A stretch of DNA of 64,000 nt from Spirochaetia bacterium (GCA_031548835.1 JAVBQS010000019.1:2445-66444), one strand, 5' to 3'. Numbered from the stretch's first letter, positions 7,451 through 35,570 are shown. Numbers and translations are program-made. Notes: a model not told the origin generated them from the letters alone.

Positions 7451-8743
7451 ATGCGTAAGGTTTATAGTAAAATAGAATCAATATCAGGAAACGTTATTAC
7501 AGTATCTGCAGAAGGGGTAAAATATGATGAGCTTGCAGAAGTTACATCAGCTCATGGTAAATCTCTTGCCCAGGTTATAAAACTGAGCGATGATAAAGTT
7601 TCTCTTCAGGTTTTCTCTGGAGGAAGAGGTATTTCCACAAATGATGAAGTGCGTTTCCTCGGCCATTCAATGCAGATATCTGTTTCAGATAATCTTTTAG
7701 GCAGAATTTTTAACGGCAGCGGCGAGCCAAGAGATAATGGCCCTGCTCTTCATGAAAACATGATAGAAACAGGAGGCCCGTCTGTTAACCCTGCAAAAAG
7801 AATAATTCCAAGGAATATGGTAAGAACTGGTATTCCTATGATAGATGTTTTCAACTCTCTTGTTGAATCACAGAAACTTCCTATTTTCTCATCATCAGGA
7901 GAGCCATATAACGAACTTCTTGCACGAATTGCGATGCAGGCAGAAGTTGATATGATTATTCTTGGAGGAATGGGCCTTAAATATGACGACTACCTCTTTT
8001 TTAAAGATACACTTGAAGAAGGAGGAGCTCTTAGCAGAGCAATCTTCTTTGTCCATACAGCATCAGACCCTATAGTTGAATGTCTTCTTGTTCCAGATGT
8101 TTCTCTTGCAGTTGCAGAACAGTTTGCGCTTAAAGGAAAAAAAGTTCTTGTTCTTCTTACAGATATGACAAACTTTGCAGATGCTCTTAAAGAAATTTCT
8201 ATTACAATGGAGCAGGTTCCTTCAAACAGAGGCTACCCGGGAGACCTTTACAGCCAGCTTGCTTCCAGATATGAAAAAGCAGTTGACTTTGAAGGCGCTG
8301 GTTCAATTACAGTTCTTGCTGTAACAACAATGCCTGGCGATGATGTAACCCACCCTGTGCCTGATAATACAGGATATATTACAGAAGGGCAGTTTTACCT
8401 TAAAGGCGGAAGAATTGAACCTTTCGGATCTCTTTCAAGACTTAAACAGCAGGTAAACAAAGATACCAGGGAAGACCACAGAGCTCTTATGGATGGTATG
8501 ATTAAACTTTATGCTGCATATAAAGAGACAGTTGAAAAAAAATCAATGGGTTTCAGAATGTCAGATTGGGATACTAAACTTCTCAAATATGGCGATATAT
8601 TTGAAAAAGAACTTATGGATCTTTCAGTAAATACACCGCTTGAAAAAGCTCTTGATAAAGGCTGGGAAATTCTTGCAGCTTGTTTCAAACCGGAAGAAAC
8701 TGGAATGAGATCAGAACTTCTTAAAAAGTTCTGGCCTAAATAA
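7451..8743 (+). CDS. atpB: V-type ATP synthase subunit B
   Basis: 430 aa, ATPase alpha/beta-family fold lacking a canonical P-loop Lys, as expected for regulatory subunit B. Immediately downstream of atpA. Confidence 0.95.
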
Positions 8744-11735: not shown

Positions 11736-11802
11736 TATAGGTAGTTTTGCCAGGGTTTTTATCCCAGATGAATCATGGCAGGGTATTACACAAAGAAAGG
11801 AA

Positions 11803-22524: not shown

Positions 22525-24324
22525 CTAGGCAAGTTTAAATTTATTTACCTCATTATCAAGGTGTTTTGCAATATTGTTGTTGCTATCGATAAGCACTGAA
22601 AGATTTGACATAGATAATTTAATCTCATTTATACATTTATCAATTTCCAGGACAGCTGAATTAGTATCCATATATGTTGAATTAAGATCTTTTATAATAT
22701 TATCTATCTGGACAGTTCTTTTATTAATGTCATAAGCATCTGCTTTAATTGCCTTTGTAATATTGGCTAAATTCAAAGCTGCTCCATTAAGCTCTCCTGT
22801 TCCTGAAGACATTTCATTCATATTATTATTAATTGTTGTAAATCCATTTATAAATTCTTCCAGTTTTGTATTTATTGTTGAAAACCCGGTCTGGCTTTCT
22901 GCAGAAATATTTGATGCAAGAGAAATTTTTTCATTTATAATTCCAAGAATATTTTTTATTTTATTTGAATTTTCACTTGTAGATTCTGCAAGATTTCTTA
23001 TCTCATTTGCCACAACTGCAAAACCTTTCCCAGCCTCGCCTGCATGAGCAGCTTCAATTGCTGCATTTATTGCAAGCAGATTTGTCTGCCTTGTTATATT
23101 GTTTATTATCTGTAGTATTTCATACATTTTTGATGCTTCTCCTTTTATATCATCAACAATACTTTTTGTTTTTTCTATTTTTCCGCCGCCTATAATAGTA
23201 ATTTGTGTAAGCTCTTTTGATTCTGTTAAATTTTCATTTGAGATAGAATTTACATTGGTAATTGTAGAATAAAGCTGCTGGACAGCAGAAGATGTCTGTG
23301 TAACTATGGAAGACTGGCCATCTATTTTTTCTGTAAGTGTATTTATATTTCCGGAAATATTCTCAACTGATTCAGAAGTTATGCTGACTGCTCTTGAAAG
23401 ATTTTCAAAAAGATTTTTTATTGCTTCTATTCTTGTAATTATGTTTGATATATTTCCATAAGTTTCATTTGCAGAATCTATAACTTTTCCGCTTATATCT
23501 ACAGTATTATTTGAGGCATCTTTAACCTCATGTATCAGGCTTTTCAAGCTATTAAGCGCAATAGAAAAATTTTTGTAAAATTTGCCAATCTCATCATTTT
23601 TTTTATAAACAGGAAAGGTCGAAAGATCTCCTTCTGCAATTTTTGAAGTAGTATCTATAATAATGCTTATCGGTTTTGATATAGATCTTGCCACTACTCC
23701 AGATATAATAATAGCTATAATAATACTCACAATTATTGATATCAACGTGATATTTTTTGAAACATCCAGGAGTCTCGATGTTTCGGCGCTTGTTGTTTCC
23801 AGATCTTCTCTTAGTTTTAAAACAATAATTTCAATTTCATCCTGGAGTTTTTGTGAAAGAGGCTCAAAATTCATTTTCCTCATTGAATCGCCATGATTAT
23901 TGCCTCTTTCAATATATGTGTCAGCCATTCTTAAACCTTCATCAAAAAAGACATTATAGACACCTTTTGATATTTTAAAATAGTCAGATATATCTGTGAA
24001 CTGGGTCTGCTCAAGAGATTTTTCTATAGCATCTGTCTTTGAGATAAGATTGTTATAAAGTTTTTTGGCGCTGTTTATAAGCAAATCTTTCTCTTTTGTA
24101 AGAGAAGCAGTGTAAAAAAGTGTTTCAATATCTTTAATATTATTACTAATATCAAAAAGCTGGACAGTAATAGGCATAAGCTCCTGTGTTACATATTGCA
24201 TTGAATTTCTATTTCTGCTGCTGCTGTAAAACATAAATCCAATAGCAATACAAAATATAATTACAAGAGAAATGCAGCTAATAAAGATTTTAGCTTTGAT
24301 GGAATTTAAGTTCAGGAAATTCAT
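22525..24324 (-). CDS. Methyl-accepting chemotaxis protein (TM sensor, HAMP, MCP signalling domain)
   Basis: 599 aa with an N-terminal TM helix, a second TM helix followed by HAMP, and a highly conserved signalling region ('[29 protein letters not shown]'). Confidence 0.9.
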
Positions 24325-24394
24325 TAGTTGTTACCTCTTTTTTAAATGATAGCAACTAATATAGCATATTTTTCTGCTTCCGGATAATCTTTTT

Positions 24395-25735
24395 TTATCT
24401 TTCTGCCAACGGAATATATTTTTTCCTTGGCGCAACATTTTTATATGCCGGGCGTATGATTCTTCCGCCATTTACAAGCTCTTCTATTCTATGGGCAGAC
24501 CAGCCTGCTATTCTTGCTATTGCAAATATTGGAGTATAAAGCGCTGTAGGAATATTTAGCATTTTATAGACAAAGCCTGAGTAAAAATCAACATTTGCAG
24601 AGCCTCTTTTGTCTGAATGTTTTTCCTGAGATATAATTTGCGGCGCAATTTTTTCAACTTTGGTAAAAAGGTTAAATTCTGCCTCAAGCCCTTTTTCTGC
24701 AGCAAGATCTGAAGCTTTTTCTTTCAATAATATTGCCCTGGGATCTGAAAGTGTATAGATTGCATGGCCGTATCCATATATAAGGCCTGCTTTGTCAAAA
24801 ACTTCTTTATTAAGAATTCTGCGGAGGTAATTTCCTATCTCATCTTCATCATCCCAATCTTTTATATTTTCCATCATATTTTCCATCATATTGAGAGCTT
24901 TCTTGTTTGCTCCTCCATGCCTGGGGCCTTTCATGGAGCACAATGCTGCTGCAATTGCAGCATAGGTGTCTGTATGGCTTGATGTTACCACATGATTTGT
25001 AAAAGTAGAGTTATTTCCTCCGCCATGTTCTGCGTGAAGAACAAGCGCAAGGTCAAGAACCTGTGCTTCCAGTTTTGTATATTTACTGTCGCTGCGTATA
25101 AGGTGTAAAAGATTTTCTGCTGTGCCTATTCCAGATTGCGGTTTATGGATATAAAGGCTGTTGCCTTCATGATAATGGGATTTTGCCTGGTAGCCGTAGG
25201 CTGCCATTGTCGGGAATCTTGCTATAAGCTCTATACATTGTCTTAATACATTTTCAATACTTATATCATCTGCATTTTTATCATAAGAATATGAAACAAG
25301 CACGCTTCTTGCAAGCTTGTTCATTATATCGCGGCTTGGAGCCCTCATTATCATATCTTCTGCAAAACCGTCAGGCAGCTCCCTGTAGGAATCAAGAAGG
25401 CTGTTAAACTCATCAAGTTCGTTTTTTGAAGGCAGCTCGCCAAAAAGAAGAAAATAGGTAGTTTCTTCAAAGCCGTGCCTGTCTTCAGCTATCATTCCTT
25501 TTACAAGTTCAGTTATATTTACGCCTCTGTAAAGAAGCCTTCCCTCATCAGGCTGCATTTCTCCTTCATCAAAGACATAGCCGTGGACATCTCCTATTTC
25601 TGTAAGCCCTACAAGCACTCCTGACTCATCGCTGTTTCTAAGCCCTCTTTTTACATTATATCTGGTATATAAACTGGGATCTATTTTATTACTCAAAATC
25701 TTGTCTTTCATTTTTTCAATAAAATTTGCAGCCAT
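24395..25735 (-). CDS. gltA: Citrate synthase
   Basis: All the catalytic motifs are present: 'GPRHGGAN', 'GYGHAIYTLSDPRA', 'NVDFYSG', 'ARIAGWSAHRIEE'. 446 aa. Confidence 0.9.
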   Translation of the reverse strand: MAANFIEKMKDKILSNKIDPSLYTRYNVKRGLRNSDESGVLVGLTEIGDVHGYVFDEGEMQPDEGRLLYRGVNITELVKGMIAEDRHGFEETTYFLLFGELPSKNELDEFNSLLDSYRELPDGFAEDMIMRAPSRDIMNKLARSVLVSYSYDKNADDISIENVLRQCIELIARFPTMAAYGYQAKSHYHEGNSLYIHKPQSGIGTAENLLHLIRSDSKYTKLEAQVLDLALVLHAEHGGGNNSTFTNHVVTSSHTDTYAAIAAALCSMKGPRHGGANKKALNMMENMMENIKDWDDEDEIGNYLRRILNKEVFDKAGLIYGYGHAIYTLSDPRAILLKEKASDLAAEKGLEAEFNLFTKVEKIAPQIISQEKHSDKRGSANVDFYSGFVYKMLNIPTALYTPIFAIARIAGWSAHRIEELVNGGRIIRPAYKNVAPRKKYIPLAER

Positions 25736-25743
25736 TTTTTCCC

Positions 25744-25758
25744 CCTGATGATGTCAGG
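25744..25758. promoter_or_regulatory. Palindrome CCTGA-TGATG-TCAGG immediately upstream of the gltA start codon
   Basis: A perfect 5-bp inverted repeat with a 5-nt spacer, 9 nt upstream of the gltA ATG (minus strand). A near-identical element occurs at 28233-28255. Confidence 0.5.
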
Positions 25759-26025
25759 CAGTAATGATATAGATAATAGCATTCCTGCTTACATTTTAAT
25801 TTATTTTAATATAAAATAAAAACAATGGAAATAGCGTAATTTATTACTGTTAAATTTGAAATTTAAGTTAAATAATTGTCCAGTCAGGAAAGTTTTAGCC
25901 GTAATGTTTAGCTTATAAATAATCATAAAATAATATTTTTATTTTTTAATAACTTTATATATAAAATAAAAATAATTATATAAAATTATACAATTTAATA
26001 ACTTTAAGTTATTAAAGAAATGAAA

Positions 26026-26065
26026 ATAAATGAGTTGTCTTTATAGATAAATGAGTTGACTTTAT
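26026..26065. promoter_or_regulatory. Two 19-bp direct repeats (ATAAATGAGTTG[T/A]CTTTAT) with 21-bp periodicity in the gltA / CS-like divergent intergenic region
   Basis: 18 of 19 positions are identical. The repeats lie about 120 bp upstream of the 26187 gene. Their two-helical-turn spacing is typical of transcription-factor tandem sites. Confidence 0.45.
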
Positions 26066-26186
26066 GCAAGGAATAATTTAGGGTTGTATAAAAAATATTG
26101 ATTTTTACCTGTTGTTATCTGCATTTGTAGAGTCCTTTCAGGTAGAAACATTATATTAAATGTAACTTAATATAGGAGGAGAGAGA

Positions 26187-27083
26187 ATGGATCGGAAACC
26201 ATTGATCCAAAGGAAAACTGCAATCTGTTACAAAACAGAAGAAAAAACAGTTTTACGCGGTTTTAATGTAAGTGATCTTGCTGAAGCAGGCTACACTTTC
26301 ATAGATGCTCTGTATGTTCTTTTTCAGGGAAGAATTCCTGCTGAAAATGAGAAAAAAATGCTTGATTATGAGGTAGCAGAGTTTCTTGAACACTCAATGT
26401 CACCTTCAGCTGTATCTGCTATAGCTGTTATTAACGGACATCCAATGCTTCCAGCTGCTGTTGCATCATCAATCATGACTTTTGGTGGAGCTCACGGCCC
26501 AGGTGCAGCACACGGATATATGATGAAAAAATACCTTGACAGAGCTGCTGACACAGGAAAAAGCATCAAAGAAGTTGCTATTGAATGTGTAAACGAGTAT
26601 ATGGATGCAGGTCTTGCTGTAATGGGTATGGGACAGCCGCAGCACCTTGACGGTGACCCAAGAGCAGAACCCACACACCTCAAACAGGAAGAACTTGGAG
26701 TTACAGGTGTATATCTCCAGTTCCAGAGAGCTCTTGAAGATAAATTCTATGCAAGAAGAAAAGAAGAAGGCAGAGCTTATGTTGCTGTAAACATGGTTGG
26801 CGCTGGTAATACTGCTCTTTCTGACATGGGATTTGCTCCAAATGCAGGATGGGTTATCGGTTGTGTAACAAGAGGTTACAGCTGTGCTTGTCACGCTCTC
26901 TATACACTTAAAAAAGGAAGAGCATGGGCAGCATCAAGAAGCGAGCCAATGGTTCAGATGCTTGACCTTGCAATGATTAAATATGTAGGGCCGGAAGACA
27001 GGGAAGTTCCTCCTATGTCAGAAAGACAGGCATATGCAAAAAAACAGTTAGAATCAGGAGAATATAAGAAATGGGCGCTGTAA
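26187..27083 (+). CDS. Citrate-synthase-family protein, subunit 1 of a putative heteromeric enzyme (retains the His264-equivalent and the DPRA motif)
   Basis: 'GGAHGPGAAHG' aligns with 'GPRHGGAN', followed about 35 aa later by 'GMGQPQHLDGDPRAE' (the GxGHxxY His is replaced by Gln). The C-terminal 'GWVIGCVTRGYSCACHALY' matches the 'ARxxGWxAH' motif. The N-terminus matches the CS region 'LRGFNVSDLAEAGYTFIDALYVLFQGRIP'. Strong SD 'aggagg'. Confidence 0.7.
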   Translation: MDRKPLIQRKTAICYKTEEKTVLRGFNVSDLAEAGYTFIDALYVLFQGRIPAENEKKMLDYEVAEFLEHSMSPSAVSAIAVINGHPMLPAAVASSIMTFGGAHGPGAAHGYMMKKYLDRAADTGKSIKEVAIECVNEYMDAGLAVMGMGQPQHLDGDPRAEPTHLKQEELGVTGVYLQFQRALEDKFYARRKEEGRAYVAVNMVGAGNTALSDMGFAPNAGWVIGCVTRGYSCACHALYTLKKGRAWAASRSEPMVQMLDLAMIKYVGPEDREVPPMSERQAYAKKQLESGEYKKWAL

Positions 27084-28144
27084 AATATTCAGATGACAGA
27101 ATTGCACAAATGAAATTTGCAAAAAGGCCAACTCTCGGTAACCTTGCAGATCCAAGATTAAAATATGACTATACAAACAGAGAGATTGGAACACTTCCTC
27201 CAGATAACAGGGAAAGTTTTAAATGGGTTTCTGAAGTAGCATACAAAAATATCCACAGAATCGTAGCTAGAGGTTATGATACAACAGAAATTGTAGAAGC
27301 TGGTTACGGAGTATGCGAAGTACTCTTTATAGACTATCAGTCAAGAATTCCTCTTGTTGAAGAGAAAGAAGTTCTTGATTACTGCATGGTTTTAGGACTT
27401 GAAGACGGCCTTTCAAACCCAGCTCTTCTTGCAAGACTTATTGCAAGAGGTAAATCTTACGTAACACAGGCTTGCGGCGGTTCAGTGCTTGCTTTCGGAC
27501 ATGCATATGCTTCTTACGATGCAACAGGAAAAATGATTGTTAAATATGCTTCAAAAGTAGAAGAAGGAATGAGCCTTACAGATGCTGCAAAGCTTTGTAT
27601 AAAAGAATGCCAGAAAGAAGACCATTTTGGTATTTCTACTCTTTATGCTAAAGATGCTGCGCCAAAAAAACTTCTTGACTTTGCAGAGAAAAAACTCTCA
27701 GGCGTAAAGAAACTCAGATATGTAAACTTCATGAAAGAACTCGACAAACAGGCTAAAGCAGCGCTTGGTGCTAATTATGGCGTAGACATGATTGGCGCTC
27801 TTTCAGCAGCAATGCTTGAACTCGAATTCTCAAGTGATGGAGCATGGTGTTTAATGGCTGTTACAAGATCATTTGCAGCAGGCGCTCATGCAATTGAAGA
27901 AATGGAAAGAGAGACACTTGATGTTCTTGGCCAGACACTTACTCCAAAAGATTGGTACGACGGTCCGGCAGACAAACCAGTTCCTTCACAGAAAGAAAGA
28001 TCAGGCTTCAAAGGCGGCCAGGCTCAGACAGCTGCTGAATGGAGAGCTCTCTGGAAAAAGAATGAAGCACTCAAAGGTTCTGGATATTCAATCCCATTTG
28101 TTGTTGAAGATCCAAGAAAAGCTAGTGTAACAAAAAAGAAATAA
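27071..28144 (+). CDS. Citrate-synthase-family protein, subunit 2 (paralog; retains the His305- and Asp362-equivalents)
   Basis: 'AFGHAYASYDATG' aligns with 'GYGHAIYTLSDPRA', 'GANYGVDMIG' with 'ANVDFYSG', and 'AVTRSFAAGAHAIEEME' with 'ARIAGWSAHRIEE'. The N-terminus is paralogous to ORF 26187 ('RGYDTTEIVEAGYGVCEVLFIDYQSRIP'). It overlaps the upstream gene by 13 nt. Confidence 0.7.
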   Translation: MGAVKYSDDRIAQMKFAKRPTLGNLADPRLKYDYTNREIGTLPPDNRESFKWVSEVAYKNIHRIVARGYDTTEIVEAGYGVCEVLFIDYQSRIPLVEEKEVLDYCMVLGLEDGLSNPALLARLIARGKSYVTQACGGSVLAFGHAYASYDATGKMIVKYASKVEEGMSLTDAAKLCIKECQKEDHFGISTLYAKDAAPKKLLDFAEKKLSGVKKLRYVNFMKELDKQAKAALGANYGVDMIGALSAAMLELEFSSDGAWCLMAVTRSFAAGAHAIEEMERETLDVLGQTLTPKDWYDGPADKPVPSQKERSGFKGGQAQTAAEWRALWKKNEALKGSGYSIPFVVEDPRKASVTKKK

Positions 28145-28159
28145 TTTCTTTTTACAATA

Positions 28160-28191
28160 TCTGCAGAGTGTTATCATAGACATTCTGCAGA
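28160..28191. promoter_or_regulatory. Two TCTGCAGA palindromes spaced 24 bp centre-to-centre
   Basis: Seen in the 147-bp gap between the second CS-like gene and the aldehyde dehydrogenase gene. Confidence 0.3.
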
Positions 28192-28232
28192 ATAGTTTTA
28201 ATAAAATAAAATTTTTTTTTTACAGAAAAAAT

Positions 28233-28255
28233 ACCCTGATGATGAGTCAGGGTAT
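28233..28255. promoter_or_regulatory. Palindrome TACCCTGA-tgatgag-TCAGGGTA (8-bp stem), second copy of the gltA-upstream element
   Basis: It shares 'CCCTGATGATG..TCAGG' with the site at 25744-25758 and lies 37 nt upstream of the ALDH start. Confidence 0.5.
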
Positions 28256-28291
28256 AACTATGTATAACTAATTTATTAGGAGAAGGTAGAG

Positions 28292-29698
28292 ATGTCAGAT
28301 AACATTAAGGAAATGTATGCTAAAGCAAGAAAAGCTTTTGAAGTTGTTGAATTCTGGGATCAGGAAAGAGTTAACGAAGTAGTTGCTGCTGTTGCTTGGC
28401 AGTGGATGAAAAAAGAAGTTGGAGAAGAACTTGCAAAACTTGCAGCTGAAGGCTCTGGAATGGGTAAATATGAAGATAAATGCCAGAAAGCAAACAAGGT
28501 TAGAGGAATAATGTGGGATATGAAAGATGCTAAAACAGCAGGCATCATTAAAGAAGATAAAGAAAAAGGTATTACAACATATGCAAAACCAATGGGTGTT
28601 GTTGCAAACGTTGTTCCTACAACAAACCCAACAATAACAGCATGTTTTATCGGTCTTTCACTTCTTAAGACAAGAAATGCAATGATCTGTTCACCGCACC
28701 CAAGATCAAAAGATTCTACATATAGAACAATTGAATGGGGAAGAGCAGCTCTTAAAGCTGTTGGCGCTCCGGAAGATCTTTTCCAGTGTATTCAAGATCC
28801 TACAAATGAAAAAACAGTTGAACTTATGTCAACATGCGATTATGCAGTTGCAACAGGCGGAAAAGCTCTTATTAAAGTAGTACATTCAGCAGGAACACCT
28901 TCTGTAACAGTAGGCGCTGGTAACGTAAGAGCAATTATTGATCCATCTGCAGATCTTGCTAATGCAGCTTTCTGCGTAGCTAAATCAAAGACATTTGACA
29001 ATGCTACATCATGTTCTTCAGAAAATGCTGTTTCTATCCATGTGTCAATATATGACAAAATGATGGAAGAGCTCAGAAAAGTTGGCGGATACATGCTTAA
29101 CACAGAAGACAGGGAAAAACTCAGAAAAGCTATGTGGCCTGACGGACACACACTTAACAGAGACATTGTTGCAAAACCTGTACAGCATATTGCAAAACTT
29201 GCTGGCATTAGCGTTCCAGAAGGAACAAAATTCATCATGGTAAAAGGTGAAAAAATCGGACCAGAAGATATGTTCTCTAACGAAAAACTTTCACTCGTTC
29301 TTACTGTATGGACATGGGAAGATTTTGACACAGAGATCAAAACACTTAAGAAAAACCTTCTTTTCTCTGGTATTGGCCATTCATGTGCTCTTCACTCAAC
29401 AAAACCGGAACAGTGGCACAAACTTGCTGCTTTTATTCCTACAGGAAGAGTTAACATAAACATGCCTAACACAACTGTAAACAGCGGAAGCTGGTTTGCT
29501 GGCCATGAATTTACAACAACAATTGGTTGCGGTACATGGGCAGGCAACAGCCACAGCGATAACATCAACTACAGACATTTTATGAATACAACAAGACTTG
29601 CCACACCTCTTAAAGAATATGTTCCTACAGACGAAGAAGTTTGGGGAAAATATCTTGATAAGGCTAAAAAAGCAACAGCAAATCTTAAATTAAACTAA
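28292..29698 (+). CDS. CoA-acylating aldehyde dehydrogenase (EutE/PduP/AdhE-N-terminal family)
   Basis: 'GVVANVVPTTNPT' and the catalytic-Cys region 'FDNATSCSSENAV' correspond to 'FDNGVICASEQSV' of AdhE-type enzymes. 468 aa. SD 'aggagaagg'. Confidence 0.85.
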   Translation: MSDNIKEMYAKARKAFEVVEFWDQERVNEVVAAVAWQWMKKEVGEELAKLAAEGSGMGKYEDKCQKANKVRGIMWDMKDAKTAGIIKEDKEKGITTYAKPMGVVANVVPTTNPTITACFIGLSLLKTRNAMICSPHPRSKDSTYRTIEWGRAALKAVGAPEDLFQCIQDPTNEKTVELMSTCDYAVATGGKALIKVVHSAGTPSVTVGAGNVRAIIDPSADLANAAFCVAKSKTFDNATSCSSENAVSIHVSIYDKMMEELRKVGGYMLNTEDREKLRKAMWPDGHTLNRDIVAKPVQHIAKLAGISVPEGTKFIMVKGEKIGPEDMFSNEKLSLVLTVWTWEDFDTEIKTLKKNLLFSGIGHSCALHSTKPEQWHKLAAFIPTGRVNINMPNTTVNSGSWFAGHEFTTTIGCGTWAGNSHSDNINYRHFMNTTRLATPLKEYVPTDEEVWGKYLDKAKKATANLKLN

Positions 29699-29717
29699 TA
29701 TTATATTGGTTTAAACA

Positions 29718-29747
29718 GGGGCTCCTTAACCGGAGCCCTTTTTTTTC
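29718..29747 (+). terminator. Rho-independent terminator after the aldehyde dehydrogenase gene
   Basis: Stem gggctcc/ggagccc with a 6-nt loop, followed by T9. Confidence 0.75.
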
Positions 29748-29917
29748 TTTTTAAAAAACTGATGGGCTGCGAAGCGTACTGTATAGATAACATATAACAA
29801 ATATAAATTTGATAATTAAATACAGTATACACTTCGTTATCCAGCACAATTTTGGTAGATAAATTTATAGACTGTTAAAGTAAAATAGTTTAGTTTAAAT
29901 ATATAAAGAGGAAAAAA

Positions 29918-30619
29918 ATGATAAAAGCTATTGTATTTGATTTTGTTCAGACACTTGGCAGCGCTGCAGATGGCTATAAAGATGCTGAAAAAAAATCTCA
30001 GAAAAAACTATATGAAAAACTTGGCATCAATGACTGGGATAAATATATGGATCTATACAGGGAAGAGAGAAAACAGCATTTTTTAAGATCTGATTTTTCA
30101 AGAAAAAATGTCTGGATAAAACTTTGTGATTATTTTAATGTTCCTGTGGATAATAAATTTCTTGATCAGCTTGAAGACCAGTATTGGGAAATTGTAAAAA
30201 ACAGCATGAAACTTTTTCCTGAAGCGCTTGATGTAATTAAGAAATTAAAGCCCAGATATAAGCTTGGCATGGTTTCCAATTCCCAGAAAGACGGCAGCAC
30301 AAAAGCTCTTGAAAATGATGAATATAAAAAGCTTGAAAAACTGTTTGATGCAATTGTTATATCAGGAGAAGGAAATATTCCTGCCAAACCAGACCCTGCG
30401 CCGTTTAAAATAGTTTTGGAAAAACTTGGTGTTAAGTCGGAAGAAGCTATTTTTGTTGGAGATGATTTTAGAGTAGATATTGAAGGCAGCAAAAATGCAG
30501 GAATGACACCTGTATGGCTTAAGCATTACTCTGTTGAACGCAACTGGCCTGAAGCATCATTCAAAGTTATAGAAATAACCAATCTTGAAGATGTAGTTGA
30601 TATAGAGAAAAAGCTTTAG
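29918..30619 (+). CDS. HAD-superfamily hydrolase (phosphatase-like)
   Basis: N-terminal 'IVFDFVQTL' (motif I). Motif IV 'GDDFRVDIEGSKNAGM'. 233 aa. Confidence 0.8.
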   Translation: MIKAIVFDFVQTLGSAADGYKDAEKKSQKKLYEKLGINDWDKYMDLYREERKQHFLRSDFSRKNVWIKLCDYFNVPVDNKFLDQLEDQYWEIVKNSMKLFPEALDVIKKLKPRYKLGMVSNSQKDGSTKALENDEYKKLEKLFDAIVISGEGNIPAKPDPAPFKIVLEKLGVKSEEAIFVGDDFRVDIEGSKNAGMTPVWLKHYSVERNWPEASFKVIEITNLEDVVDIEKKL

Positions 30620-30663
30620 GGTATTGACCTGTTAGAAAGTAATCGTTAACATGAAAAATAGTT

Positions 30664-31569
30664 ATGAATCTCTATCATTTAAAGACTTTTTATTATACTG
30701 CAAAATGTAAAAGCCTTACAAAGGCAGCAGATATGCTGTGTATTACTCAACCTGCTGTTACCAAGCAGATTAAACAGCTCCAGAGCTACTATGACCTTAA
30801 ATTCCTTGATATTATAGGGAAAAAAGTTATTCTTACTGATGCAGGTGAACATCTCTATAGCATTGCAGATAAAATTTTTGATATGGAAAGCCAGGCAGAG
30901 GAAAGCATCAAGGATTTCCAGCATTTTAACAAAGGCAAGATTTCAATATTGTCATGCGAAAGTTTTGGAGCTTACTATCTTCCCTATATTATTAAATATT
31001 ATAGCAAAGCAAACCATGATATAAATGTTTCCATGATTATTGGTCATAACGAAAGTATTATTGAAAATACAGCAGAGCTTAATAATGATATAGGATTTAT
31101 ATCAAAACCTATTCAGAATCCAAAAATATCAGTGCAGGAAATTCTTGAAGATAATATTGTGTGTATTGTTCCGCGCAACCATCAGCTTACAAGAAAAGAT
31201 CATCTTGAAGTAAAAGATATTGAAGGATACAACCTTATTGTACATGAAAAAGGTTCTGTAACCAGAAAAATAACAGAAACTTTTATAAGAAAAAATAGAA
31301 TTAATGTAAATATGCATTATGAAATTTCAAATAATGAAACTATAAAAAGGCTTGTTGAACAGGGCCTTGGAGTCGCATTTATATCAAACAATATGGTAAA
31401 TGAAGAAGTAAAAACAGGGAGATTAATTGCCCTGCCTGTTGAAGATAAAAATTTTAAAAGAAAATATTATATGATCCACCACAGCGATAAATATTTTTCA
31501 AAACCTCTTAAAGATTTTGTAGACCTTGTGCACCAGTGGTCTAATATTTATCCTACGCCAATGTTTTAA
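30664..31569 (+). CDS. LysR-family transcriptional regulator
   Basis: N-terminal wHTH 'LKTFYYTAKCKSLTKAADMLCITQPAVTKQIKQLQ'. About 300 aa with a C-terminal substrate-binding domain. Confidence 0.9.
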   Translation: MNLYHLKTFYYTAKCKSLTKAADMLCITQPAVTKQIKQLQSYYDLKFLDIIGKKVILTDAGEHLYSIADKIFDMESQAEESIKDFQHFNKGKISILSCESFGAYYLPYIIKYYSKANHDINVSMIIGHNESIIENTAELNNDIGFISKPIQNPKISVQEILEDNIVCIVPRNHQLTRKDHLEVKDIEGYNLIVHEKGSVTRKITETFIRKNRINVNMHYEISNNETIKRLVEQGLGVAFISNNMVNEEVKTGRLIALPVEDKNFKRKYYMIHHSDKYFSKPLKDFVDLVHQWSNIYPTPMF

Positions 31570-34541: not shown

Positions 34542-35570
34542 ATGAACAAATATGTGAATGCTGTGCAATCTGAACAGATAAAAAACTATGGATTTAAAAA
34601 AATTATAGGAAATTCAACCGCAATACAGGAGGTTTTTAAATCTATAGGAAGGCTTGTTAATAATGATGTTATTGTTCATATAGCAGGAGAAAGCGGGACA
34701 GGAAAAGAGTTGGTTGCACATGCGCTGCACTTTAATGGCAAGAGAAAAAATGAACCTTTTATTGCTGTTAACTGTTCCGGCCTTATAGAATCTATTTTGG
34801 ACAATGAACTTTTCGGCCATGAACCGCAGGCTTTTACAGGCGCTGTATCGCTTAAAATAGGAAAATTTGAAGCAGCAGGAGAAGGAACAATATTTCTTGA
34901 TGAAATTGGAGATATGCCTCTTACAATACAAACAAAATTCCTGAGAATTCTTCAGGAAAATGAATTTCACAGAATGGGTGGACTTAAAAATATTAAATTA
35001 AAGGCAAGAGTTATAACTGCAACAAACAGAAATCTTTTTGAAGAAGTACAGGCAGGCCGCTTTCGGGAAGATCTTTATTACAGAATAAATGTTGCAAAAA
35101 TAATTTTGCCGCCCCTTCGGGAAAGAAAAGAAGATATTCCTGAACTTACAGATTTTTTTGTTCAAAAAATTTCAAGAAAAATTAACAAAAGTTTTATATC
35201 TGTGCCTGAGCAAATAAAAAATGAATTTATAAATTATGATTGGCCTGGAAATGTAAGAGAGCTTGAAAATCTAATTACAAGTATGTGTATAAATGCAAAA
35301 GGAGCTGTTCTTGCATTAGACGATATGCCGGCTACTGTTTTAAAATCATCAAGAGAAGATTGTCTTTCCAAAGTTATAGATAAATTTTATATGGAAAATA
35401 AACATTCAAAAAATCTGCTTCCTCTGCTTTATGAAAAACTTGAAAAAATAATGATAGATAAAATTGCACATGAGCAGAACAATAATAAATCTGCCATGGC
35501 AGAAATACTTGGGATAAGCAGGGTTACGCTTACAAAAAAAATGAATCAGGATGAAAAAAGCCATAATTAA
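34542..35570 (+). CDS. Sigma-54 interaction (AAA+) domain plus Fis-type HTH (C-terminal part of an interrupted NtrC-type activator)
   Basis: Walker A 'GESGTGKE'. The GAFTGA-like 'GHEPQAFTGA'. 'VRELEN'. C-terminal HTH 'SAMAEILGISRVTLTKKM'. It is in the same frame as the receiver ORF, separated by TGA plus 4 codons. Confidence 0.85.
   Translation: MNKYVNAVQSEQIKNYGFKKIIGNSTAIQEVFKSIGRLVNNDVIVHIAGESGTGKELVAHALHFNGKRKNEPFIAVNCSGLIESILDNELFGHEPQAFTGAVSLKIGKFEAAGEGTIFLDEIGDMPLTIQTKFLRILQENEFHRMGGLKNIKLKARVITATNRNLFEEVQAGRFREDLYYRINVAKIILPPLRERKEDIPELTDFFVQKISRKINKSFISVPEQIKNEFINYDWPGNVRELENLITSMCINAKGAVLALDDMPATVLKSSREDCLSKVIDKFYMENKHSKNLLPLLYEKLEKIMIDKIAHEQNNNKSAMAEILGISRVTLTKKMNQDEKSHN

Follow-up and report, generated by a model that had tools for sequence, protein, structure and literature searches.

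A conserved RNA stem-loop upstream of an aldehyde dehydrogenase gene in gut Spirochaetia and its chance-level resemblance to a palindrome beside gltA

We show that an inverted repeat upstream of a CoA-acylating aldehyde dehydrogenase (ALDH) gene in a gut spirochaete is a conserved, covarying RNA stem-loop formed on the + strand only, not a dimer operator, and that its resemblance to a second inverted repeat beside the citrate synthase gene gltA is not beyond chance. Our analysis covered a 64,000-nt stretch of DNA (hereafter the window; Spirochaetia bacterium, GCA_031548835.1 JAVBQS010000019.1:2445-66444) together with related loci. An earlier note on this DNA had read the two palindromes as a common operator for gltA and the citrate synthase (CS)-like/ALDH genes, possibly served by a nearby LysR-family regulator, or alternatively as RNA hairpins. 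The operator proposal is not supported: the gltA-side element is absent from 21 of 21 related gltA leaders, the likeness of the sites is at chance level, and their half-sites are spaced differently (5 vs 7 nt). The hairpin alternative holds for the ALDH-side element, which is conserved, covarying and specific to the + strand, and not for the gltA-side one, which is unconserved and weak. A shared operator would have linked citrate synthase and the CS-like/ALDH pathway through one regulator, and the evidence indicates that this link is absent. The reading that we prefer, and to which we give an even chance, is that the palindromes are unrelated, the one before gltA being a coincidence on its ribosome-binding site and the other an intercistronic RNA processing and stability stem-loop.

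A conserved stem-loop before the ALDH gene

The ALDH-side palindrome (site 2, TACCCTGA-tgatgag-TCAGGGTA) is located at 28232-28254 (+), one base away from the 28233-28255 reported previously, and it does lie, as had been described, 37 nt upstream of the ALDH ATG at 28292. The existence of both inverted repeats is likewise not in doubt. As RNA, site 2 forms hairpin 2, UACCCUGA(U)-loop-(G)UCAGGGUA (28232..28254, +), in the spacer between the second citryl-CoA-lyase-like gene (CSLb, an ORF at 27071..28144, +) and ALDH (28292..29698, +; Pfam PF00171). CSLb matched NCBIfam citryl-CoA lyase subfamilies, all below cut-off, and its nearest solved structure is the citryl-CoA lyase 6hxp (E = 8.7e-6); the ALDH is SauS/EutE/AdhE-N-like, yet it falls under every equivalog cut-off (NCBIfam NF047625, 482.6 bits vs 600). 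These genes belong to a cassette encoding two citryl-CoA-lyase-like proteins, the CoA-acylating ALDH and a HAD hydrolase, which is spread over many phyla and on which our literature search found nothing relevant.

The hairpin 2 stem comprises 10 bp when A28231-U28255 and a U-G pair are counted, with a folding energy of -12.8 to -14.9 kcal/mol. Only 1 of 200 shuffled sequences folded as well as the hairpin 2 region (z = -3.2), and none of 200 did so for the whole CSLb-ALDH intergenic region (z = -5.9). In the window, 29 genes have a long spacer upstream, and hairpin 2 is the sole non-terminator hairpin at or below -14 kcal/mol among them. We found a 9-10 bp stem between the CSLb-type gene and ALDH in all syntenic gut-Spirochaetia loci examined for which the region was available; it stands 27-51 nt upstream of the ALDH ATG in 17 of the 17 loci compared, downstream of a hairpin that comes behind the preceding stop codon, and 12-25 nt upstream of the ALDH Shine-Dalgarno sequence.

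Across 19 distinct orthologous sequences, 97.7% of the pair positions carried standard pairs, against 34-46% in register-shifted controls. Compensatory double changes occurred in six of the nine pairs, a count equalled in 1 of 500 shuffles, and the covariation score was 0.503 compared with 0.168 in shuffles. One pair runs through the series U-A, U-G and C-G over the window, L002 and L086, respectively, and even a pair of the supposed core changes from C-G to U-A in L143; half-sites are altered while pairing is retained (CCTTG/CAAGG in L143, CCCCGG/CCGGGG in L086). Only two C-G pairs and one G-C pair near the stem base are invariant, which could reflect sequence-specific protein recognition instead of plain stability. 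The loop ranges from 3 to 10 nt and is free in sequence; in the closest relative (L140, whose CS-like protein is 95% identical) it reads UCAAA vs GAUGA. The G-U pairs form on the + strand only, and most by far of 20 sequences folded more stably as the + strand than as the minus strand. Therefore, the conserved pairing, the strand bias of the G-U pairs and the free loop identify hairpin 2 as an RNA stem-loop and not a dimer operator, and because the pairing is strand-specific, the spacer that holds it is presumably transcribed.

Hairpin 2 occurs once in the window and once per related locus, always 5' of the ALDH gene. No further target was detected in 64 kb of this genome plus approximately 0.6 Mb of relatives, where the remaining matches to the hairpin 2 model are ordinary terminators with T-runs; scattered copies, which would have marked a generic repeat, were thus not seen. 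With membership defined as a score at or above the gathering threshold of a family, Rfam 15 gave nothing near threshold in 24000-31000, 28140-28300 or 25700-26200 (best 25 bits vs 58.7), and matches obtained at relaxed thresholds, being far under the gathering scores, were taken as chance. It is thus well supported that hairpin 2 is an undescribed RNA stem-loop, so far found only in gut Spirochaetia relatives. In distant lineages with the same cassette, only 3-58 nt separate the genes and hairpins are lacking; therefore, the hairpin module is an add-on of gut Spirochaetia.

Possible roles of hairpin 2

Most likely, hairpin 2 serves RNA processing and stability, as an intercistronic or 5'-UTR element acting with a neighbouring hairpin. 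This neighbour, hairpin 1 (28160..28191, +), is a 13-bp terminator-like stem-loop (UCUGCAGAGUGUU...GACAUUCUGCAGA, then AUAGUUUUAA) that begins 16 nt past the stop codon of CSLb. The scan gave it a terminator-like character in the window and also in L005 and L010. Among the hairpins that relatives have at this position, those of L004-L006 are clearly intrinsic terminators, those of the rumen clade are weaker, and that of L002 does not reach the scan threshold. Between the two hairpins runs an A/U-rich single-stranded linker (28192..28231, +), in which an endonuclease may cut or a weak internal promoter may lie. Hairpin 1, linker and hairpin 2 would thus make up one intercistronic module acting in cis in the transcript that carries ALDH. 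Hairpin 1 would end or shield the upstream message of both citryl-CoA-lyase-like genes, read-through or processed transcripts would start at or just before hairpin 2, and its stable stem would guard the 5' end of the ALDH message, with presumed RNases acting at the module. The outcome would be an ALDH dosage set apart from that of the two upstream genes, as in selective RNA processing and stabilisation. Precedents exist: in the cip-cel operon, stem-loops between the genes are reported to stabilise both ends of processed transcripts and to serve as cleavage signals, and GC-rich stems are needed (PMC10311766; PMC4423207); operon stoichiometry can also be tuned by internal terminators (PMC9045158).

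A possible but rather doubtful alternative is that ALDH translation or decay responds to a signal through a trans-acting RNA-binding protein or specific endoribonuclease, which would recognise hairpin 2 by the sequence of the invariant C-C/G-G and G-C pairs close to the base of the stem. The persistence of these three base pairs in 19 sequences with divergent flanks and loop, the position of the stem 12-25 nt before the Shine-Dalgarno sequence and the description of GC-rich stems as specific cleavage signals in the cip-cel system (PMC10311766) are all consistent with such a factor. Against it, no second target was found in 64 kb of this genome or approximately 0.6 Mb of relatives; nor was a gene for an RNA-binding protein found in the neighbourhood. 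The replacement of C-G by U-A in L143 and of U-A by C-G in L086 favours structure over sequence, and neither the length nor the sequence of the loop is constrained.

We regard with similar reserve the possibility that ALDH has its own promoter in the linker, so that hairpin 2 is the 5'-terminal stabiliser of a monocistronic mRNA, without processing. The terminator-like character of hairpin 1 agrees with this, as does the strong intrinsic terminator that ALDH has of its own (AGGGGCUCC-uuaacc-GGAGCCCU, then a U-run; 29717..29750, +). The linker is also fairly constant in length in the window clade (about 30-43 nt), and -10-like hexamers (TAAAAT, TAAATT, TACAAT) can be found by eye 5-12 nt 5' of the stem. 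A consensus scan, however, returned no + strand sigma-70-like match between the hairpins in the window, L005, L010 or L002, and the rumen clade, with approximately 10 nt from hairpin 1 to hairpin 2, has no room for a promoter. A weak promoter-like arrangement, CTGCAG-16-TAAAAT, is readable by eye in the window clade, where the DNA is A/T-rich, and an internal promoter before ALDH may exist in such DNA.

Two further candidates at hairpin 2 were rejected. A small upstream ORF in hairpin 2 (28239-28271, MMSQGITMYN) has no Shine-Dalgarno sequence, and its frame and start codon are lost in L016, L017, L004 and L010. A promoter overlapping hairpin 2 does not serve as a general explanation, having no -35 element, lacking the hexamers in L004-L006 and suffering shifts in spacing from the variable loop. 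In many lineages, -10-like hexamers (TATAAC, TATATT, TAAAAT) do lie directly 3' of the stem; no match to sigma-54 or MerR-type promoter architectures was seen by eye.

Returning to the processing and stability reading, hairpin 2 probably sets the amount of ALDH relative to the two upstream enzymes. It should be useful in annotating these uncultured genomes and would illustrate intercistronic dosage control in bacteria other than Firmicutes and Proteobacteria, although it is conceptually not new. Of greater interest at this locus than the palindromes is what the widely conserved cassette of four enzyme genes does.

Site 1 and the less probable readings

The gltA-side palindrome (site 1, CCTGA-tgatg-TCAGG, 25744-25758) lies 8 nt off the ATG of gltA (24395..25735, minus strand). 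The common 11-nt core plus TCAGG that had drawn attention to the pair is real: CCCTGATGATG and TCAGG are present at both sites, amounting to 16 shared bases, and the 11-mer has two exact occurrences in the whole window. In the gltA mRNA, the shared 11-mer is antisense, and as RNA the two sites have only a 5-bp stem in common. Site 1 is the best local match in the window to the 23-nt site 2 sequence (score 13.0), and a score as good was reached in 9.7% of simulated 64-kb sequences (300 composition-matched windows). Unrelated real matches scored 12.5 (ending near 11785) and 12.0 (near 7888, in ORF 7451-8743). The window contains 1250 perfect 5-bp palindromes with a 3-9 nt loop, of which 119 have at least three G/C per arm. 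The resemblance between site 1 and site 2 is not beyond chance. Considering position, the occurrence of the 11-mer and TCAGG together exactly at the start of a neighbouring gene is unusual.

The pattern CCTGA-N3-9-TCAGG was observed five times in the window against 0.17 expected, and we considered whether it represents a family. The extra sites (3014, 34940 and 41644) have 5-7 bp stems and unalike flanks, the hairpin 2 model scored the three at about 13 bits or less (about 13 for two among the matches listed), and at least one of them is intragenic (34940, within ORF 34542-35570). The family was therefore rejected.

In the gltA 5' UTR, site 1 would form a weak 5-bp hairpin, CCUGA-cauca-UCAGG (25744..25758, minus strand; -4.3 kcal/mol), whose fold context is no better than shuffles (z = -1.2). 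A conserved promoter-like block lies approximately 65 nt upstream, and because of it site 1 appears to sit inside the transcribed leader, next to the start codon. The 3' arm in the mRNA is the gltA Shine-Dalgarno sequence CAGGGGGA (25740..25747, minus strand), conserved 5' of the gltA start in relatives, and its reverse complement gives the CCCCCTG portion of the motif held to be shared; (U)CAGGGGGAA or a near variant (CGGGGG, CAGGAGG) precedes gltA in L003, L007, L086, L089, L009, L016 and L004-L006. None of the 21 related gltA leaders has the other arm, not even those of relatives with 84-90% protein identity, and folding of 21 leaders showed no conserved hairpin sequestering the Shine-Dalgarno sequence. 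A contig of the same strain (L081) is 100% identical over the compared 542-nt intergenic region between gltA and the first CS-like gene (CSLa) and is uninformative. A covariance model of the ALDH-side hairpin missed site 1 even when matches with E <= 10 were admitted. If a regulator were shared, the gltA leaders of relatives would be expected to carry their own genome's version of the ALDH hairpin, and none does. Site 1 is lineage-specific and probably fortuitous: an upstream CCUGA would, in one lineage, chance to pair with the first bases of CAGGGGGA, with no evident function, although site 1 may have acquired one recently in that lineage.

One such function, which we consider improbable, would be that of a new, lineage-specific translational attenuator of gltA, independent of site 2, with the Shine-Dalgarno sequence partly occluded. 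The minimum-energy fold of the leader does contain the site 1 hairpin, in which the Shine-Dalgarno sequence has its first three bases paired, and a weak CCUG...CAGG complementarity exists also in L003 and L089; however, the hairpin is weak, the GGGGGA core is left unpaired, its fold is matched by shuffles, and site 1 is not kept even at 89-90% protein identity. Very improbable, in our view, is a regulatory scheme in which hairpin 2 and a hairpin in the CSLa leader are sites of a dedicated RNA-binding regulator or endoribonuclease for the uncharacterised cassette pathway, with site 1 recruited of late as a third target, tying citrate synthase translation to that pathway in one lineage. The CSLa leader has a conserved long hairpin with a UACCUG/CAGGUA stem segment resembling hairpin 2. 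As a copy of the same motif, this was rejected: only UACCUG/CAGGUA is alike, and there is no within-genome correlation with hairpin 2.

There is only a slim chance that hairpin 2 acts as an intrinsic terminator, on the minus strand or in both directions, directed against antisense transcription into the CS-like genes. Read as the minus strand, hairpin 2 looks like a terminator (stem, then T-run) in the window and in about half of the orthologues, the scan calls a terminator in the window and L005 (stem, then TTTTTCTG or TTATTATT), and a + strand A-run lies 5' of the stem in the window clade and L005/L006. The T-run, however, is lacking in the rumen clade, L086, L004 and L003, no minus-strand gene or promoter downstream is in need of a terminator, and the minus strand turns G-U pairs into A-C mismatches, with folds 2-5 kcal/mol weaker in most sequences.

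Least probable of all is the binding of both palindromes as double-stranded DNA by a dimeric repressor or the neighbouring LysR-type regulator (30664-31569), co-regulating gltA and ALDH: both palindromes are real with 16 common bases, the LysR-family gene remains syntenic with the cluster in L002-L015, and site 2 in the window formally fits a T-N11-A box (TGA-N7-TCA), but site 1 is missing from the related leaders though LysR and gene order are retained, a rigid dimer cannot fit spacers of 5 nt, 7 nt and, at orthologous ALDH sites, 3 to 10 nt, the arm asymmetries are nearly all of G-U type on the + strand, half-sites change in L143 and L086 with pairing kept, site 1 adjoins a start codon inside an apparent leader, and the similarity of the sites is at chance level.

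Comparison with known systems

The hairpin 2 stem resembles those of intrinsic terminators in having the form ACCCC.G...C.GGGGU, as in L005 (10582-10614) and L007 (2549-2578). It differs in that no lineage has a U-tract 3' of the stem on the transcribed strand, where the window has the tail UAUAACUAUG and relatives have GAGGUGCG or AUAUUCACG, and in that the gene just downstream is co-oriented and needs expression; a terminator call is made on the minus strand only and is not conserved. LysR-type regulators bind boxes with T-N11-A dyads, to which site 2 in the window formally conforms as a dyad-symmetric site near genes adjoining a LysR-family gene. In contrast to such boxes, spacing is unfixed among orthologues, site 1 would be T-N9-A, and pairing, not sequence, is conserved. 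Like REP-type elements, hairpin 2 is an intergenic, GC-richer palindrome within an A/T-rich genome, but it is present as one copy in a syntenic place and has been inherited vertically with compensatory changes; no other copies turned up in 64 kb plus approximately 0.6 Mb of relatives. ANTAR-type targets, as in eut operons, are built from two short hairpins side by side, in which positions of the hexaloop are conserved and a terminator overlaps the second hairpin, whereas hairpin 2 is a single long stem with loops of 3-10 nt lacking conserved positions and no terminator before the ATG.

Stem-loops at the 5' terminus stabilise mRNAs such as those with the E. coli ompA and B. subtilis aprE leaders, and a stabiliser of this kind must sit within a few nucleotides of the transcript 5' end. 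Hairpin 2 is similarly a simple perfect stem-loop near the start of its message, whose 5' end is here a predicted one, and 5' of the Shine-Dalgarno sequence, without internal loops or a ligand pocket. From selective RNA processing and stabilisation operons such as the cip-cel cluster of Ruminiclostridium cellulolyticum, the present case differs in that the best-studied stem-loops are 3'-end stabilisers, whereas the hairpin here lies 5' of the downstream gene, and in that the host is an uncultured gut spirochaete. The two systems are alike in that stable stem-loops containing GC lie between the genes of a co-oriented metabolic cluster and that paired hairpins stand around an A/U-rich stretch, with non-equimolar expression of neighbouring genes to be expected (PMC4423207, PMC10311766).

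The citrate synthase locus and its two palindromes

In the A/T-rich window (G+C 33.5%), the citrate synthase gene gltA lies on the minus strand (24395-25735; NF010635, 712 bits) and is followed on the plus strand by two citryl-CoA-lyase/citrate-synthase-like genes, CSLa (26187-27083) and CSLb (27071-28144), and by genes for a CoA-acylating aldehyde dehydrogenase (ALDH, 28292-29698), a HAD hydrolase (29918-30619) and a LysR-family regulator (30664-31569). Using the CSLa protein as query, we retrieved 80 related loci (L-numbers), the 17 closest of which belong to uncultured gut Spirochaetia from termite, rumen and horse. All 17 share the arrangement gltA(-)/CSLa CSLb ALDH HAD, in most cases with the LysR gene as well. 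Further close relatives came from gltA homologue look-ups (84-90% identity), an ALDH-protein scan of metagenomes, and CSLa homologues (94-95% identity).

Both palindromes described in the earlier note are present: site 1 (CCTGA-tgatg-TCAGG, 25744-25758), exactly where it had been placed and 8 nt away from the start codon of gltA, and site 2 (TACCCTGA-tgatgag-TCAGGGTA, 28232-28254), one base left of its reported position, with 37 nt between it and the ALDH start codon. The window contains the 11-mer CCCTGATGATG at two places and no others. When the 23-nt site-2 sequence was aligned to both window strands, site 1 was the top match (score 13.0), with unrelated places scoring 12.5 and 12.0, and 9.7% of 300 composition-matched simulated windows attained at least 13.0. 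The window holds 1250 perfect 5-bp palindromes with a 3-9 nt loop. Hairpin energy is -4.3 kcal/mol for site 1 versus -12.8 for site 2; relative to shuffles, folding is more stable for the site-2 region (z = -3.2) and for the entire intergenic region (z = -5.9), and is no better for the site-1 context (z = -1.2). On the plus strand the shared 11-mer is antisense to gltA, the site-1 loop in gltA mRNA reads CAUCA rather than GAUGAG, and the two sites have only a 5-bp stem in common as RNA.

The site-1 palindrome occurs in none of 21 related gltA leaders, including L082-L085 (gltA 88-90% identical), L001 (89%) and L143. The conserved gltA element is the Shine-Dalgarno sequence, with (U)CAGGGGGAA or a near variant before the start codon in L003, L007, L086, L089, L009 and L016; its reverse complement supplies the CCCCCTG of the "shared" motif, and only the CCUGA arm further upstream is specific to the window organism. 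Folding the 21 leaders revealed no conserved hairpin sequestering the Shine-Dalgarno sequence, and a covariance model of the site-2 hairpins failed to recover site 1, even with a cut-off of E<=10. L001 and L095, from the same termite metagenome, have the ALDH hairpin and lack the gltA palindrome, a comparison which suggests that site 1 is recent. Site 1 is best regarded as no feature at all: the palindrome observation is real, its significance overestimated.

The deposited gltA start of L089, a MAG contig, apparently lies 15 codons too far upstream (958-1005). Inside the annotated N-terminus are a Shine-Dalgarno sequence, CAGGGGGAAC, and an ATG matching other orthologues, with a perfect palindrome (GTCATC-T-GATGAC) just upstream.

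A conserved stem-loop before the ALDH gene

A stem-loop (hairpin 2) occupies the site-2 position in every syntenic locus with the region available, 27-51 nt from the ALDH start in the 17 loci measured. The window and L090 have AUACCCUGAU-gauga-GUCAGGGUAU; L091 has the same stem and loop, except that the pair next to the basal one is an A-C mismatch (...GUCAGGGCA). Elsewhere the element reads ...GAU-ucaaa-GUC... (L140), UGCCCUGAU...GUCAGGGCA (L016), UUACCCUGG...CCGGGGUAA (L002/L003), ACCCCGG...CCGGGGU (L086), ACCCCUGUC...GGCAGGGGU (rumen clade) and AGCCUUGA...UCAAGGUU (L143).

Among 19 distinct sequences, 97.7% of pair positions hold standard pairs, compared with a paired fraction of only 34-46% in register-shifted controls. 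Six of nine pairs show changes on both sides, equalled by 1 of 500 shuffles, and the covariation score is 0.503 versus 0.168 for shuffles. G-U pairs, possible on the plus strand only, fill 16 cells (about five independent events), alongside one A-C mismatch, and the plus-strand fold is the stabler in most sequences. The loop (3-10 nt) is unconstrained in sequence, even against the closest relative. An RNA stem-loop explains all of these features, and we are highly confident that hairpin 2 is a conserved plus-strand RNA structure.

Scanned with the covariance model, the 64-kb window and each related locus yield a single hairpin-2 copy, located upstream of ALDH in every case. All further matches, across ~0.6 Mb, belong to ordinary terminators that combine a similar ACCCC.G stem with a T-run; hairpin 2 is therefore not a dispersed repeat, and no Rfam family came near threshold. 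Nor does it qualify as an intrinsic terminator, having no U-tract on the transcribed strand. Of the 29 genes in the window that follow a long spacer, 2 are preceded by a hairpin of -14 kcal/mol or lower, one being the ALDH hairpin and the other resembling the preceding gene's terminator.

Genuine terminators in L005 (10582-10614) and L007 (2549-2578) carry nearly the hairpin-2 stem (AUACCCCGG...CCGGGGUAU and ACCCCUGCC...GGCAGGGGU, respectively). Hairpin 2 may have derived from a terminator after U-tract loss. A 10-codon ORF starting in its loop (MMSQGITMYN, 28239-28271) was rejected, having no Shine-Dalgarno sequence and being unconserved in L016, L017, L004 and L010.

The cassette and the CSLa leader

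The four-gene cassette (26187-30619; also L018-L080) encodes two citryl-CoA-lyase-like proteins, a SauS/EutE-like CoA-acylating ALDH and a HAD hydrolase. CSLa is ~70% identical across MAGs of Spirochaetia, Desulfobacterota, Syntrophales, Chloroflexota, Verrucomicrobiota and Gamma-/Alphaproteobacteria. All NCBIfam scores for the cassette fall under cut-off, CSLb has no Pfam match, public records call its proteins only "hypothetical" or "citrate synthase", and our literature search found nothing on the four-gene cassette, whose uncharacterised pathway is probably the most interesting item of the locus. The CSLb start overlaps the CSLa end by 13 nt (27071-27083), also in the relatives examined (L086-L088, L140-L143), an arrangement that suggests translational coupling and a heteromeric enzyme.

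The CSLa leader (26056-26156) contains a conserved sigma-70-like promoter (TTGACT, 26056-26061; 17 nt; TAGGGT, 26079-26084) followed by a long imperfect hairpin (AUAUUGAUUUUUACCUG ... CAGGUAGAAACAUUAU, 26095-26156) with 15 predicted pairs, 3 of them showing compensatory changes. Its UACCUG/CAGGUA segment loosely resembles hairpin 2, and Rfam gave it no match. The -35 region carries a tandem 21-bp duplication (26026-26065; ATAAATGAGTTGTCTTTAT then ATAAATGAGTTGACTTTAT), each copy with ATAAA...TTTAT dyad symmetry; many relatives conserve the block as a single copy. This duplication makes a likelier candidate binding site for a protein, possibly the LysR regulator, than either palindrome does.

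Possible role of the CSLb-ALDH spacer

The spacer runs from the CSLb stop through a terminator-like stem-loop (hairpin 1, 28160-28191; 13-bp stem, then AUAGUUUUAA), a 40-nt A/U-rich linker, hairpin 2 and ~20 nt to the Shine-Dalgarno sequence. The hairpin-1 equivalents range from a textbook terminator (L004-L006) through a weak one in the rumen clade, where the hairpins are only ~10 nt apart, to a hairpin below scan threshold in L002. A strong intrinsic terminator directly follows ALDH (29717-29750), so the HAD gene probably has its own start; a weak, probably spurious Rfam "L20_leader" match overlaps this terminator (29664-29753; 25 bits, threshold 58.7). In distant lineages (Desulfobacterota, Chloroflexota, Verrucomicrobiota, others) the same cassette has a CSLb-ALDH gap of 3-58 nt and no hairpins, indicating that the structured spacer is an addition in the gut Spirochaetia lineage.

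We tentatively propose, at slightly under even odds, that the spacer is an intercistronic module that frees ALDH dosage from that of CSLa and CSLb. Hairpin 1 would end or protect the upstream message, transcripts reading through or cut in the linker would begin at hairpin 2, and its stem would shield the 5' end of ALDH-carrying transcripts. Hairpin 2 could instead be the target of a specific RNA-binding factor, which three invariant pairs would fit, but "core" pairs covary and scanning the window and ~0.6 Mb of relatives gave no second target; we consider this unlikely. Equally unlikely is an independent ALDH promoter with hairpin 2 as 5'-terminal stabiliser; scans of the window, L005, L010 and L002 found no sigma-70-like plus-strand site between the hairpins. 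A minus-strand terminator is very improbable, with a T-run in only about half of lineages. Least credible is the earlier note's shared operator for both sites, which failed on spacing, too variable in hairpin 2 for a rigid dimeric DNA-binding protein, and on conservation at gltA; its RNA-hairpin alternative holds at ALDH, where the element is conserved and covaries, and not at gltA.

The proposed dosage-uncoupling module would work on the principle of selective RNA processing and stabilisation. Stem-loops between the genes of the cip-cel operon lend stability to both ends of processed transcripts and double as cleavage signals, GC-rich stems being required (PMC10311766; PMC4423207); other operons tune stoichiometry by internal terminators (PMC9045158). 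Hairpin 2 behaves like known intercistronic or 5'-UTR stem-loops and is a new, lineage-restricted case of them.
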